From: Escherichia coli
GTDB taxonomy: Bacteria > Pseudomonadota > Gammaproteobacteria > Enterobacterales > Enterobacteriaceae
DNA length: 64,000 bases
Assembly: GCF_003334305.1 (NCBI RefSeq)
Contig: NZ_QOWS01000004.1
Reading direction: 5' to 3' (one strand)
Positions 992 to 53,115 of this stretch are shown here, in pieces. The position numbers and the translations under genes are program-made. The first letter of the stretch is position 1. Every line of letters begins with the position of its first letter. Below the pieces are notes generated by a model. That model did no database searches, was not told where the DNA came from, and saw nothing but the letters and a program-made list of their open reading frames with translations.

Positions 992-1334
992 AATCTTTCC
1001 TCGCTTAAAAAACAAGACGCCTTATCATAGCAGCCAGCCTCTTGATACCCAATCTCTTGCTTCTGGAAAAACGTGGTAATAGAGAAAGAGGTTAATTTCA
1101 TTTGGCAAAGGGAAGTATCATCAGCAAAATATTCGCTGTAGAGGTATCGAACTTCCTGACTTTTTACCCTATTTCCCATCCTGATGCGTAATAATCCCAA
1201 TTTATCACATTGATTTTATCGCCACTCATATTGATACGTATCACTGCCCCTATTCAGAGTCCTGTTTCGTATCATATCTGTGTTTTTTTAACGTCATCAC
1301 ACTTCCTACCTCCCCTAACGCTTATCGTCGTTTC

Positions 1335-5107: not shown

Positions 5108-6886
5108 TTATGTGTTTAACAACTCATATTTCTTAATCTTGCGATAGAGCGTAGCAATGCCGATGCCCAGTTCATCAGCAACTTGCTTCTTGCTGTTATG
5201 ACGTGAAAGCGCCTCGCGGATCATTTGCTTTTCCATCTCCTCCAGCGCCGTGCCGCCCGCATCATCGAGTGACAGGTGCGCCTCACTGACCTCTGTTACA
5301 TCACTTTGCTCCGTTGTGCCATTATTCAGCAGATTTGGCGGCAATAGCGTGCTGTCGATAACTTCACCTGAAGGAACTACGTTAACCAGATATTCCATCA
5401 AATTGCTTAACTCGCGCAGGTTTCCGGGCCAACGATGCTTACGCAATATTTCGACGACATCGGGAGCAATGCCAGGATAAACCGATCCCAGACGACGGGT
5501 ATGCAGATGTAAAAAGTAATGCACCAATAGTTCAATATCTTCCTGACGTTCACGCAGCGGTGGCAGAGTTATCGGGATAACATTAAGTCGGTAGAAGAGA
5601 TCTTCGCGGAATTTACCTTCGGCAATGAACTGGGCCAAATTCTGATTAGTTGCAGAAATGATGCGAATGTCGACTTGTATTGGGCTACTGGCACCAATCG
5701 GCAGAATTTCACGCGCCTCAATAGCGCGCAGTAATTTAGCCTGCAACATTAATGGCATATCACCTATTTCATCGAGAAACAGCGTGCCCGTATTCGCCGC
5801 CTGAATCAACCCTGTTTTACCGTTGGCAGAAGCGCCAGTAAATGCGCCTTTAACATAACCGAACAGTTCGCTTTCCAGAAGCTGCTCCGGAATCGCGGCA
5901 CAGTTGATAGCAATAAAGGGTTTATTCCGTCTTCCGCTCAACTTATGGATTGCTCGGGCGACGACTTCTTTACCCGTGCCGCTTTCACCAACCACCATAA
6001 CGCTGGATGGGCTGGGTGCAATACGGCTAATGAGTCGTTTTAATTGCCACATAACACGGCACTCGCCAACCAATTGTTCAATATGTGGTTCATCAGGTGC
6101 ATTTGCTACAGAAAAACTGGTATGCGATTGGTGAAATGCCATTAAAAATAATTGTCGGCCCTGAATGTTATGCAATTGACCAATGATTAATTCACTTTTA
6201 TCGTCCCACGAAACAATATGCTGCATATGTCCATGAGTAAAATTACTCTCAAATGTTAATGGTCTGAAACGGATAGGTTTCCCAATAATATTATTTTGTA
6301 CAACACCAAGTGTTTTTAAGGCAGTCTGATTAACAAACTGAACCCGACTTTCATCATCAACAACTAATACGCCCTGATCCATATTATCGATCATGGTCGC
6401 GAATATTTTACTGATGTTATCTCCTGGCCCCTGATCCTCCAGAAGTTTCGAAACAAAAATGGTGGATATATGGCGAACATAATCAGAAAATTCGCGTAAA
6501 TTATCACTGATATGCTCTTGTTGCTCGTGGGTAACGGCAATCAAACTTATCACCCCAACACAACGATCCTGTAAAATGACAGGCGTACCCAGAAATGCTT
6601 TTTCGCGGCAATTTTCTTTACTATCGCAACCTTCGCAAAGGGGATCGAAGCGAGACTGTGTCACAACTTTTTCAGTTTTCGTTTCCAGGACGTGGCGGAG
6701 CAGGCGTGAGTTGCCGCTCAACTGGCGACCAAGAAACTTCCCATACGCGCCCGTTCCGGCGACGCGACACAAGTTTTCATCAACGATCTCAACCTCAAGC
6801 TGCAAAACGCTGGCAAGCATTCTGGCAAAACGCTGAATTGTCGGTTGAATTTGCATCAATACTGACTGCGTAGTAGCAAGCTCCAT
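5108..6886 (-). CDS. ygeV: Sigma54-dependent transcriptional activator (enhancer-binding protein)
   Basis: 592 aa; Walker A GESGTGKE, GAFTGA sigma54-contact motif, C-terminal helix-turn-helix (QVADELGIGIATLYRKI), N-terminal sensory region. Confidence 0.92.
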   Translation of the reverse strand: MELATTQSVLMQIQPTIQRFARMLASVLQLEVEIVDENLCRVAGTGAYGKFLGRQLSGNSRLLRHVLETKTEKVVTQSRFDPLCEGCDSKENCREKAFLGTPVILQDRCVGVISLIAVTHEQQEHISDNLREFSDYVRHISTIFVSKLLEDQGPGDNISKIFATMIDNMDQGVLVVDDESRVQFVNQTALKTLGVVQNNIIGKPIRFRPLTFESNFTHGHMQHIVSWDDKSELIIGQLHNIQGRQLFLMAFHQSHTSFSVANAPDEPHIEQLVGECRVMWQLKRLISRIAPSPSSVMVVGESGTGKEVVARAIHKLSGRRNKPFIAINCAAIPEQLLESELFGYVKGAFTGASANGKTGLIQAANTGTLFLDEIGDMPLMLQAKLLRAIEAREILPIGASSPIQVDIRIISATNQNLAQFIAEGKFREDLFYRLNVIPITLPPLRERQEDIELLVHYFLHLHTRRLGSVYPGIAPDVVEILRKHRWPGNLRELSNLMEYLVNVVPSGEVIDSTLLPPNLLNNGTTEQSDVTEVSEAHLSLDDAGGTALEEMEKQMIREALSRHNSKKQVADELGIGIATLYRKIKKYELLNT

Positions 6887-7148
6887 AGCTTTACCTTCCA
6901 GACTTACTTAAAAGTCGATCATTGAAGACGTTGATGGTTCACAGATCATGATGATATTAACTCAGGCGAAATTGGCTTTGATAAAAACATAAGATTTTTA
7001 TCATTTTCTAATGAAATTATGGAAGAGATATCACATTTCTATATCAATATGAGAATTACGGCGGTGAGTTTATCAAACTGAAGAGAGATAGCCTGTCCCT
7101 TTATCTTATTTCTGATACTTAGCAGCAAATAAATAACGCGATAAAAAA

Positions 7149-7164
7149 AGCCAAACGTTTTCGT
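7149..7164. promoter_or_regulatory. PurR-box-like palindrome in the ygeV-ygeW intergenic region
   Basis: AGCCAAACGTTTTCGT matches 13 of 16 positions of the PurR operator consensus ACGCAAACGTTTGCGT. Confidence 0.3.
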
Positions 7165-7361
7165 ATTTTACAAACAACCGGAAGCTGGCATCAATTTGTG
7201 ATCAACCCCACACATTATCCGTCAAATTAGTCTTTTGCAGCCCCGTGGATAATTCTGGCACACTTATTGTTAGTCCCAGGTATAGCTGTGAAAACACCAA
7301 TCACTTTGGCAAGTCACAGTGAAATAAACCACTTTGCCTGTCATTCCACTACCGGGACTTT

Positions 7362-8552
7362 ATGATGAAAACTGTTAATGAGCTGATTAAGGATATCAAT
7401 TCGCTGACCTCTCACCTTCACGAGAAAGATTTTTTGTTAACGTGGGAACAGACGCCAGATGAACTGAAACAAGTACTGGACGTTGCCGCAGCATTAAAAG
7501 CACTGCGTGCTGAAAACATCTCAACCAAAGTCTTTAATAGTGGATTAGGTATTTCCGTATTCCGCGACAACTCCACCCGTACCCGCTTCTCTTATGCTTC
7601 CGCGCTTAACCTGCTCGGCCTTGCACAACAAGATCTCGACGAAGGCAAATCACAAATCGCTCACGGCGAAACCGTGCGTGAAACCGCCAATATGATCTCC
7701 TTCTGCGCCGACGCTATTGGTATTCGCGACGATATGTATCTGGGCGCAGGCAACGCCTATATGCGTGAAGTTGGCGCTGCACTTGATGACGGTTACAAGC
7801 AGGGTGTACTGCCACAGCGTCCGGCTTTAGTGAACCTGCAATGCGATATTGACCACCCGACTCAGTCAATGGCTGACCTCGCGTGGTTACGTGAACACTT
7901 TGGTTCACTGGAAAACCTGAAAGGTAAAAAAATCGCCATGACCTGGGCCTACTCTCCAAGCTATGGCAAACCGCTCTCTGTACCACAAGGCATCATCGGT
8001 CTGATGACTCGCTTCGGTATGGATGTCACCCTGGCCCATCCGGAAGGCTACGACCTGATCCCGGATGTGGTTGAAGTGGCGAAAAACAATGCTAAAGCAT
8101 CTGGCGGTAGCTTCCGTCAGGTCACCAGCATGGAAGAAGCGTTCAAAGATGCAGACATCGTTTATCCGAAGTCATGGGCACCTTACAAAGTGATGGAACA
8201 GCGTACCGAATTGCTGCGCGCTAACGATCACGAAGGCTTAAAAGCACTGGAAAAACAGTGTCTGGCACAGAACGCGCAACACAAAGACTGGCATTGTACT
8301 GAAGAGATGATGGAACTGACCCGTGATGGCGAAGCCCTGTACATGCACTGCCTGCCAGCTGATATCAGCGGCGTATCCTGTAAAGAAGGTGAAGTGACTG
8401 AAGGCGTATTCGAAAAATACCGTATCGCAACCTACAAAGAAGCCAGCTGGAAGCCTTATATCATCGCCGCGATGATCCTGTCCCGTAAATACGCCAAACC
8501 AGGTGCACTGCTCGAGCAACTGCTGAAAGAAGCGCAAGAACGCGTGAAATAA
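7362..8552 (+). CDS. ygeW: Transcarbamylase-family protein (carbamoyltransferase, unknown substrate)
   Basis: 396 aa; STRTR carbamoyl-phosphate-binding motif (FRDNSTRTRFS) and HCLPA motif. Confidence 0.9.
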   Translation: MMKTVNELIKDINSLTSHLHEKDFLLTWEQTPDELKQVLDVAAALKALRAENISTKVFNSGLGISVFRDNSTRTRFSYASALNLLGLAQQDLDEGKSQIAHGETVRETANMISFCADAIGIRDDMYLGAGNAYMREVGAALDDGYKQGVLPQRPALVNLQCDIDHPTQSMADLAWLREHFGSLENLKGKKIAMTWAYSPSYGKPLSVPQGIIGLMTRFGMDVTLAHPEGYDLIPDVVEVAKNNAKASGGSFRQVTSMEEAFKDADIVYPKSWAPYKVMEQRTELLRANDHEGLKALEKQCLAQNAQHKDWHCTEEMMELTRDGEALYMHCLPADISGVSCKEGEVTEGVFEKYRIATYKEASWKPYIIAAMILSRKYAKPGALLEQLLKEAQERVK

Positions 8553-51466: not shown

Positions 51467-51840
51467 CTTGTCCTCATTGAATAAGCGGGGCTGACAACTT
51501 TTCATGGTGAAATTATCACCACGAAACCCAGCATCGGAGCCACTCCCGGTCCCCAACGCAATCGTTCTCTTTTGCCTGAACTTACCACCGAAACAGACTG
51601 TTAACCATAAGGTAAAATTGATCATCACATTAGCTTATGGTTAAAAAACGCCAAAATCGCGACAGAATAAAAAACCAAAAAACACACCAGTTTCTATATA
51701 AAGATGATACCATTAGAAAGCTAATTTGAATAAGGCAATATTAAGAGCTAAAAAAATGTCAAAAAACACTAAATCAAAAAATAATGACATTAGAAAATAT
51801 AATGCGAAAACGGAGGTGAAATTAGTTTATTTCAAATGAG
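51467..51840 (-). promoter_or_regulatory. AT-rich gcvTHP upstream control region
   Basis: About 370 bp of AT-rich, non-coding DNA upstream of gcvT; individual sites not resolved. Confidence 0.45.
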
Positions 51841-51912: not shown

Positions 51913-53115
51913 TTAACGCAGCCATTCAGGCAAATCGTTTAATCCCATTGCCTGGCGGATAAGTTGTGGTTTAACGCCAGGAAGCGTGTCGGCCAGTTTC
52001 AAACCAATATCACGCAGCAGTTTTTTCGCCGGATTGGTACCGGAAAACAGATCGCGGAATCCCTGCATACCAGCCAGCATCAGCGCCGCACTGTGCTTGC
52101 GGCTACGCTCATACCGGCGCAGGTAAATGTACTGCCCGATGTCTTTCCCCTGACGATGCAACCGTTTCAGTTCAGCAATCAGCTCTGCAGCATCCATAAA
52201 GCCGAGATTTACTCCCTGCCCCGCCAGCGGGTGAATGGTATGCGCGGCGTCGCCCACCAGCACCAGACGGTGCGCGGCAAACTGGCGCGCATAACGCCCC
52301 GTCAGTGGGAACACCTGACGCGCGCTCTCAACCTTGCATAAGCCCAGGCGATTATCAAAAGCGATATTTAACGCGCGATTAAATTCATCTTCACTTGCCT
52401 GCTGCATCCGCTGCGCTTCCTCTGGCGACAGTGACCAGACAATTGAGCAAAGATGCGGATCGCTAAGCGGTAAAAAGGCCAGAATGCCTTCGCCATGGAA
52501 AACCTGCCGCGCCACCGCATCATGCGGTTCTTCCGTGCGAATGGTCGCTACCAGCGCGTGATGCTGATAATCCCAGAAAGTCAGCGGAATATCTGCTTTG
52601 TTGCGCAACCAGGAATTAGCACCGTCCGCGCCAATCACCAGACGCGCCGTTAACATGCTGCCATCTTTCAGCGTCAGGAAAGTTTCATTTTCTCCCCAGG
52701 CGACCTGCTGTAATTCTGCGGGGGCCAACAGAGTGATATCTGACGACTGCTGCGCTTTGTTCCACAGCGCGTAGTGAATCACTGAGTTTTCAACGATATG
52801 CCCAAGATGGCTATAGCCCATGCTTTGATCGTCAAACGAAATGTGACCAAAACTGTCTTTGTCCCACACTTCCATACCGTGATAACAACTGGCCCTACGA
52901 GAGAGAATGTCCTGCCAGACGCCAAGACGGGTGAGTAATTTTTCGCTGGCGGCATTGATAGCCGAAACGCGCAGTTGTGGTGGTGCATCCGCCGCCAGAG
53001 GTTCCGGTACGCGCTGCTCCAGTACGGCAACGCGTAAGCCGCTCCCCTGTAAGCCGCAGGCAACCGCCAGCCCCACCATGCCGCCACCAACAATGGCTAC
53101 ATCAACACTTTGCAT
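51913..53115 (-). CDS. ubiI: FAD-dependent monooxygenase (ubiquinone biosynthesis hydroxylase)
   Basis: 400 aa; VAIVGGGMVG dinucleotide motif; also called visC. Confidence 0.93.
   Translation of the reverse strand: MQSVDVAIVGGGMVGLAVACGLQGSGLRVAVLEQRVPEPLAADAPPQLRVSAINAASEKLLTRLGVWQDILSRRASCYHGMEVWDKDSFGHISFDDQSMGYSHLGHIVENSVIHYALWNKAQQSSDITLLAPAELQQVAWGENETFLTLKDGSMLTARLVIGADGANSWLRNKADIPLTFWDYQHHALVATIRTEEPHDAVARQVFHGEGILAFLPLSDPHLCSIVWSLSPEEAQRMQQASEDEFNRALNIAFDNRLGLCKVESARQVFPLTGRYARQFAAHRLVLVGDAAHTIHPLAGQGVNLGFMDAAELIAELKRLHRQGKDIGQYIYLRRYERSRKHSAALMLAGMQGFRDLFSGTNPAKKLLRDIGLKLADTLPGVKPQLIRQAMGLNDLPEWLR

Follow-up and report, generated by a model that had tools for sequence, protein, structure and literature searches.

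A conserved PurR-type box midway between a probable YgeV site and the sigma-54 promoter of ygeW in Escherichia coli, a probable weak PurR operator

The purine repressor PurR binds DNA when it is loaded with hypoxanthine or guanine, and in every case resolved so far it acts as a direct repressor. Its operators in the pur regulon of Escherichia coli (among them purF, purT and purHD; ACGNAAACGTTTGCNT) are 16-bp imperfect palindromes of non-coding DNA, with a central CpG and AAAC/GTTT arms. Here we describe an element of the same build, AGCCAAACGTTTTCGT (hereafter the box), located in the spacer between the divergently transcribed genes ygeV and ygeW. It was found in a 64-kb stretch of E. coli chromosome, called the window below, which carries the purine/urate catabolic cluster xdhABC-ygeV-ygeWXY-hyuA-...-ygfK-...-uacT. 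As in the purT and purH operators, one half of the box is a perfect half-site (ACGAAAAC), and its score falls in the range of bound sites. In other respects the box departs from the classical pur operators. It stands at about -126 of a sigma-54 promoter, and not on the -35/-10 elements of a sigma-70 promoter or downstream of the start site; its second half has a C in place of the near-invariant G at position 3 (G3); it is not in the published list of regions bound in chromatin immunoprecipitation on microarrays (ChIP-chip); and its target is catabolic, not biosynthetic.

The PurR ChIP-chip sites of this cluster, at ygfK-ssnA (16666) and at ygfT-ygfS/uacT (31559 and 32240), belong to the same purine/urate regulon and are likewise found upstream of sigma-54/YgeV-type promoters. 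The ygfK site, like the box, combines one good half with one devoid of G3, and it is weakly enriched, in an adenine-dependent manner (log2 1.00). The published cluster sites have in vivo binding evidence, whereas the box is a predicted site. The geometry also differs, as the ygfK site is ~225 bp from its sigma-54 motif and the 32240 site is beyond the ygfT enhancer motif, near the uacT start. A second set of parallels is offered by the factors that bind inside the loop of sigma-54 promoters, namely IHF, ArgR at astCADBE, the CRP or NtrC governor sites at glnAp2, Nac at nac, and the synthetic LacI, TetR and TraR constructs. The box shares with them a location between activator site and promoter, although the activator site is here inferred from a shared motif, and its mid-loop position is the one at which modelling predicts the strongest effect (PMC4740811). 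Unlike these factors, PurR has never been described in such a role.

The reading that we favour, at a probability of roughly 0.5, is that the box is a low-affinity PurR operator which modulates the looping from YgeV to the sigma-54 polymerase at ygeW. Its parts do not all carry the same weight. The box is very probably a real protein-binding site, to judge from its sequence and its conservation; PurR is its probable binder; and if PurR does bind, its effect would rather be negative than positive. What is new here is the phylogenetic footprint with a PurR-like tolerance, the separation of the box from the likely YgeV motif and its exact mid-loop placement. PurR operators, PurR sites in the cluster and in-loop modulators of sigma-54 promoters were already known, and the box itself had been predicted in silico. 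The box and the two genes that flank it are the following.

7149 to 7164, no strand assigned: PurR-operator-like imperfect palindrome AGCCAAACGTTTTCGT, the box, recognised by matrix score and conservation.
5108 to 6886, minus strand: ygeV (isrR), coding for a sigma-54-dependent activator, divergently transcribed.
7362 to 8552, plus strand: ygeW, coding for a carbamoyltransferase of reductive urate and 2,8-dioxopurine degradation, first gene of its operon.

The first-pass annotation of this DNA had reported a PurR-operator-like palindrome in the divergent control region of the two genes, and its description of the element was accurate. Positions 7149-7164 of the plus strand do read AGCCAAACGTTTTCGT, with 13 of 16 positions matching the palindromic consensus ACGCAAACGTTTGCGT, the central CG and both AAAC/GTTT arms included, and the spacer from which ygeV (minus strand) and ygeW (plus strand) diverge is 475 bp long. 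This spacer is present in 5181 of 5426 complete genomes, and in MG1655 the box occupies 3,004,071-3,004,086. The two halves of the 16-bp dyad are AGCCAAAC and GTTTTCGT. The right one is the consensus PurR half-site when read on the minus strand; the left one is defective at half-site position 3, with C for G. As in PurR operators, the C8-G9 centre and the A5A6/T11T12 arms are kept. Nor is the 16-mer itself new: an in-silico reconstruction of the regulon, published in 2015, gives exactly this sequence for ygeW in its supplement, among 93 predicted sites (PMC4576408); our literature search for it returned no relevant main-text match.

How far does this resemblance exceed chance? Two matches to the consensus with at most three mismatches were found in the window against 0.5 expected, a number reached by 9 of 100 shuffles. 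Mismatch counting, not significant alone, was thus dropped as a significance test, and a matrix made from ChIP-bound sites was used in its place. For this position weight matrix we took the 28 motif instances that Cho et al. reported in their PurR ChIP-chip work (2011, PMC3159470). We used it as published and in a symmetrised form; the latter suits a homodimer better in physical terms and tracks ChIP enrichment more closely (Spearman 0.51, P=0.006). The box scores 16.2 bits with the published matrix (p=1.5e-6 per position, 0.19 matches expected per 64 kb) and 18.6 bits with the symmetrised one (p=3e-7 per position, 0.019 expected per 64 kb). Within the AT-rich spacer, taken at its own base composition, the chance matches expected are ~1e-3 and ~1e-4, respectively. 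The leave-one-out scores of the bound sites span 7.4-25.2 bits, a range which includes the box, and the box outscores 8 of the 28 with the published matrix and 17 of the 28 with the symmetrised matrix. It is also the highest symmetrised-matrix match in the window. Five of the six best matches there lie in or beside published PurR ChIP regions (ygfK 16666, ygfT 31559 and 32240, gcvT 51556 and 52156), so that matches at the score of the box are usually real; the box is the only one of the six that has no ChIP support.

Conservation provides the second line of evidence. A protein-anchored search for ygeW, with one genome per species, gave 80 loci, and 700 bp upstream of the gene were scanned in the 42 closest. 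In the genomes that bear it, the box is found 202-227 bp before the ygeW ATG. It is identical in Citrobacter sp. R56, C. amalonaticus and Trabulsiella odontotermitis, takes the form AGCCAAACGATTACGT in C. freundii and AGCCAAACGTTTACGT in Klebsiella indica, and has a degenerate version in K. oxytoca. No box is present in the 700 bp scanned upstream of ygeW in Edwardsiella, Pluralibacter, Kluyvera, Serratia, Hafnia, Aeromonas, Vibrio and others. Across six species the box is the second most conserved 16-mer of the spacer, with 14 of its 16 columns invariant versus 28% overall (P=1.4e-6 for a single 16-bp window, 7e-4 after correction for 460 such windows), which places it on par with the sigma-54 promoter. 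It forms an isolated conserved island in flanking DNA that is unalignable, and the right edge of the conserved block coincides exactly with the boundary of the 16-bp box. Three divergent E. coli strains are uninformative in this respect: they differ at 21 spacer sites, none of them in the box, where only ~0.7 would be expected in 16 bp.

We also scanned metagenomes with a pattern anchored on the enhancer motif and the sigma-54 promoter, and blind to the box. Among the 72 loci recovered (31 distinct sequences) was a further box-bearing lineage, from a soil metagenome (L109, AGCCAATCGTTTTCCT), 52% identical to E. coli over the enhancer-to-promoter stretch and 52-66% identical across that stretch as a lineage. 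Among the same loci were four lineages that lack the box and retain all the other elements. The box-bearing lineages are thus seven: E. coli, two Citrobacter species, C. freundii, Klebsiella indica, Trabulsiella and the soil-metagenome lineage. Their variants of the box score 16.6-18.6 bits and differ only at positions 7, 10, 13 and 15, which correspond to half-site positions 7, 7, 4 and 2. All four fall on the six positions of lowest information in the PurR motif (hypergeometric P=0.008). By these comparisons, the box is under purifying selection in at least seven lineages. A constraint profile that mirrors the tolerance of PurR is the strongest argument that the reader would be PurR, or a very similar protein.

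A separate case is an E. coli-like metagenome contig, L090 (QZMG01001047.1), which is 98% identical over the stretch and in which the central CpG of the box is changed to CA (AGCCAAACATTTTCGT, 10.8 bits). This change may represent a natural knock-out of the box, or else an error of sequencing.

Where does the box stand within the control region of ygeW? Three other elements of the spacer define its position.

7041 to 7056, minus strand: probable YgeV (IsrR) enhancer site, with its core CTCATATTGATA at 7042-7053, proposed from the shared motif and its conservation.
7197 to 7212, no strand assigned: CRP-like site TGTGATCAACCCCACA (TGTGA-N6-CCACA), centred at ~-77.5 from the sigma-54 start, recognised as a conserved block.
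7255 to 7271, plus strand: sigma-54 promoter of ygeW(XY-hyuA-yqeA), CTGGCACACTTATTGTT, with the -24 GG and the -12 GT, recognised from chromatin immunoprecipitation sequencing (ChIP-seq), systematic evolution of ligands by exponential enrichment (SELEX) and invariance.

The promoter had been noted in the first-pass annotation as a weaker sigma-54-like element. The element does exist, but it is not a weak candidate, as it is bound in ChIP-seq and invariant. CTGGCACACTTATTGTT is the motif of OS30, a ChIP-seq peak for sigma-54 assigned to ygeW, and the start site is predicted at ~7282, 80 bp before the ATG (Bonocora et al. 2015, PMC4591121). A genomic SELEX peak of the RpoN holoenzyme is located within the ygeV/ygeW spacer (PMC8743547). 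Only the TTGT in place of TTGC can be called weaker: the promoter reads TGGCAC-N5-TTGT, with one mismatch, at the -12 C, to TGGCAC-N5-TTGC. The element is invariant in all aligned genomes, as are TGGCAC and TATTGTTA in the seven genome-derived sequences. Relative to the predicted start site, the centre of the box is at ~-125.5. A second sigma-54-like element, CTGGCATCAATTTGTG (~7185-7200), was rejected; it has the wrong -24/-12 spacing, is not in the ChIP-seq list and is not conserved. As to the CRP-like site, its GTGA...CACA block is found 58-59 bp before TGGCAC in 15 of 17 sequences, in agreement with a 2025 paper that reports a native Crp-binding site in the ygeV/ygeW spacer and glucose repression.

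The probable enhancer motif was obtained by comparing the DNA upstream of four ChIP-seq sigma-54 motifs (xdhA 1334, ygeW 7255, ygfK 16891 and ygfT 31898). Exact copies of the 12-mer CTCATATTGATA are found at 1225-1236 (+), 7042-7053 (-) and 32080-32091 (-), and they precede the sigma-54 motif of xdhA by ~111 bp, that of ygeW by ~215 bp and that of ygfT by ~180 bp. When one mismatch is allowed, the window holds 5 matches against 0.25 expected, a number that none of 100 shuffles reaches. In the spacer the 12-mer falls within the most conserved 16-mer (16 of 16 columns invariant, six species). The literature search for it gave no relevant main-text match. It is this 12-mer, rather than the box, that is more likely to be the enhancer site of YgeV. 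We had considered the box itself for that function, and this candidate was ruled out: the motif common to the xdhA, ygeW and ygfT enhancers is different in sequence and unrelated to the box, which consequently is not the enhancer site, and the DNA upstream of xdhA has no PurR-like box of at least 8 bits.

In E. coli the box lies 107 bp downstream of the enhancer motif and 107 bp upstream of the -24 element, and in all seven lineages the distances from enhancer core to box and from box to TGGCAC (7256) are both 107-108 bp. These equal arms place the box at the midpoint of a loop of ~214 bp, for the activator site inferred above. However, the box-less lineages keep the same enhancer-to-promoter distance (214-218 bp) and the box may stay where it is by descent, and we therefore do not count the conserved spacing as architectural evidence. 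The position is relevant in another way. Modelling and hundreds of synthetic NtrC/sigma-54 enhancers show that a factor bound within the loop acts most strongly at equal distances from activator and promoter, that LacI at mid-loop quenches, and that bending factors on the inner face of the loop can enhance looping (Brunwasser-Meirom et al. 2016, PMC4740811).

The mechanism that we propose would then be the following. PurR carrying hypoxanthine or guanine would bind the box weakly and, at the apex of the loop, would alter the chance that enhancer-bound YgeV contacts the sigma-54 polymerase. The box would in this manner add a hypoxanthine/guanine input to the urate/YgeV and cyclic AMP-CRP inputs. 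By default we suppose that PurR would dampen activation, in a quenching-like repression, because all the direct effects of PurR resolved so far are repressive.

What do the published PurR data say about the cluster? ChIP-chip found 35 regions bound in the presence of adenine, two of which are in this cluster, at ygfK-ssnA (log2 1.00) and ygfT-ygfS (log2 2.08), both adenine-dependent (Cho et al. 2011, PMC3159470); the cluster is thereby linked to PurR. The literature search found no newer genome-wide PurR binding map that covers the box. Two sites of the window are concerned here.

16666 to 16681, plus strand: PurR ChIP-chip motif upstream of ygfK-ssnA, AGTTAAACGATTGCGT, log2 1.00, only with adenine.
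32240 to 32255, plus strand: PurR matrix match ACGTAAACGGTTGCTT, 19 bits, in the ygfT-uacT spacer, adjoining the published ygfT-ygfS region.

At ygfK, enhancer-like matches are found only with 2-3 mismatches and on both sides of the PurR site, so that an in-loop placement is ambiguous there. The published ygfT-ygfS motif, at 31559-31574, falls inside the ygfT reading frame (29932-31866). The neighbouring ACGTAAACGGTTGCTT is ~32-47 bp before the likely uacT ATG, is stronger than the 31559-31574 motif and is 91 bp outside the boundary of the published region; the true operator of the urate transporter gene may be this site. Two further matches were noticed in the window. ATGCAACCGTTTCAGT (52156-52171, 14 bits) lies within the gcvT region published from ChIP-chip and neighbours the gcvT site already known at 51556; ATATGAACGTTTGCGT (59679-59694) had been proposed for serA, as its -95 site, in the 2015 in-silico work (PMC4576408).

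The first-pass annotation had suggested that the palindrome would tie the cluster to purine availability. The matrix score, the conservation and the ChIP-chip regions at ygfK and ygfT speak for this tie. The missing ChIP region at ygeV/ygeW, the C at the left G3 and the place of ygeWXY outside the PurR iModulons speak against it, and these belong to a group of observations that weigh against our reading. In the bound half-sites, C8 is found in 56 of 56, A6 in 54 of 56 and G3 in 53 of 56. The box has this G in its right half only, its left half having C, whereas PurR sites typically have it in both. The three bound sites with a non-G3 half (fhuC, fabB and ygfK) have enrichments of only 0.97-1.00, the lowest reported value being 0.84. 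The ChIP-chip table gives no region at ygeV/ygeW, with or without adenine, though several motifs of weaker score were detected in the same experiment, which covered one regime (aerobic, exponential, with and without adenine) and which also missed 2 of 15 known sites (PMC3159470). The quality of the left half-site is a likely reason for the missing signal.

In a transcriptome compendium with purR knock-out and adenine conditions, the ygeWXY genes fall within the YgeV iModulon and outside PurR-1 and PurR-2; the YgeV iModulon is silent in nearly all the conditions sampled, however, so that an effect of PurR on ygeWXY could not have shown. Two points come from the comparative data. The defective left half (AGCC) is invariant in all box-bearing lineages, which selection for PurR affinity alone does not predict. 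Moreover, the enhancer motif, the CRP-like element and the sigma-54 promoter all persist in at least four lineages devoid of the box, K. oxytoca among them, so that the core circuit can dispense with the box. Finally, repressing a purine-catabolic operon when purines are high is physiologically counter-intuitive. As the box has G3 in one half only, is missing from the regions bound in ChIP-chip and stands at a non-classical position, we class it as a probable weak PurR operator rather than an established regulon member.

The invariance of the non-consensus left half AGCCAAAC in seven lineages, together with the negative ChIP-chip result, raises the question of another reader. The box could be bound by a different repressor of the LacI/GalR family that uses the AAACGTTT core, for example the PurR paralogue RbsR, or by an uncharacterised factor that reads AGCC; we consider this unlikely. 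RbsR is the closest paralogue of PurR, and Shimada et al., in 2013, reportedly found it at purine-metabolism promoters. Its operator, which we take to be AGCGAAACGTTTCGCT, has the AAACGTTT core in common with the box, and the left half agrees with the rbsD half-site, presumably AGCGAAAC, in 7 positions of 8. Nevertheless, the overall match on this assumption is 12 of 16 for RbsR versus 13-14 of 16 for PurR, and the right half, a perfect PurR half-site, has just 5 of its 8 positions in common with the RbsR half. Where the box varies, it does so at the degenerate positions of PurR, and with just four variable positions the invariance of the left half is not statistically telling.

The counter-intuitive sign of the default mechanism disappears if PurR acts positively at the box. 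In that case it would kink the DNA at the apex of the 214-bp loop and aid the contact between YgeV and sigma-54 in the manner of IHF, or of ArgR at astCADBE, and abundant purines would super-induce the anaerobic urate/purine degradation operon. The physiological logic is better, catabolism being raised when purines are plentiful, and urate does strongly induce E. coli ygfK and ygfT, with ygeV needed for urate use. PurR is said to kink its operator by roughly 45-50 degrees (Schumacher and colleagues, 1994), and at astC the ArgR sites, which lie between those of NtrC and the sigma-54 promoter, are reported to super-induce (Kiupakis and Reitzer, 2002). The box, exactly mid-loop (107/107 bp), is at the point of highest curvature, where in-loop factors have most leverage, and in the model bending factors on the inner face raise the looping probability (PMC4740811). 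Yet no gene is known to be activated directly by PurR, and LacI, a member of the same family, gave no up-regulation in synthetic sigma-54 enhancers (PMC4740811). The lack of a PurR ChIP signal at the box counts here as well, and the helical face of the bend is not deducible from sequence. We hold a positive role to be unlikely, and keep dampening as the default sign of the favoured reading.

It is quite improbable that the box is instead a classical PurR operator on a sigma-70 promoter of ygeV, from which PurR would occlude the start and lower YgeV at high purine. A sigma-70-like match does exist on the minus strand, with a -35 TTGATG at 7194-7189, an 18-bp spacer, a -10 TAAAAT at 7170-7165 and a start at ~7158, inside the box. 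But it agrees with the consensus at 9 of 12 positions, and 2 such matches are found in the region when shuffling predicts 1.9; neither hexamer is conserved in the other box-bearing species, and with this start the ygeV transcript would have a 5′ leader of ~270 nt that includes the enhancer motif. The conserved blocks at 6950-7012, nearer to the ygeV ATG, are better promoter candidates. In this part of the spacer we noticed a perfect 9-bp inverted repeat, TGATAAAAA-N7-TTTTTATCA (6979-7003), ~95-115 bp upstream of the ygeV ATG, as well as a block, TTTATCAAA (7069-7077), conserved in all 17 lineages. The repeat and the block could correspond to the ygeV promoter, or to autoregulatory or additional YgeV sites.

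A match by chance and devoid of function, or a conservation due to the YgeV enhancer site itself, is very improbable: ~1.4 to 14 sites of the score of the box are expected per 4.64-Mb genome and ChIP-chip gives no binding, but the box is the second most conserved 16-mer amid saturated flanks, and the enhancer version conflicts with the unrelated 12-mer and with the xdhA upstream region described above.

Two observations concern the window as a whole. Its offset to MG1655 (U00096.2) is 2,996,922 at ygeW and 2,997,102 at ygfK and ygfT, from which it follows that, somewhere between ygeW and ygfK, this strain is ~180 bp shorter than MG1655. In the closest-matching complete genome, that of strain E2865 (locus L001, 14521-16817), whose spacer is 100% identical to that of the window, xdhA is annotated as frameshifted.

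In conclusion, the ygeW-ygfK cluster represents, in E. coli, the pathway by which gut bacteria degrade urate anaerobically, which bears on the urate load of the host and on gout. According to a 2025 paper its regulation is poorly understood, and the engineering of urate-degrading probiotics has been tried by replacing the ygeV/ygeW spacer. Our analysis offers a testable control map of ygeW. It combines a probable YgeV motif common to three promoters with a CRP site, the bound sigma-54 promoter and, at mid-loop, a conserved box of the PurR type. This map gives handles on the laboratory silence of the cluster and on the engineering of such probiotics. If PurR does act inside the sigma-54 loop, a textbook repressor would be extended to a new class of promoter, and ygeW would provide a natural example of the loop-quenching or loop-assisting known so far mainly from synthetic enhancers. 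Should the positive role be the true one, it would be the first direct positive role of PurR and a natural case of tuning of a sigma-54 loop by the LacI family, and it may be one instance of a design that extends across the cluster, to ygfK and ygfT/uacT.

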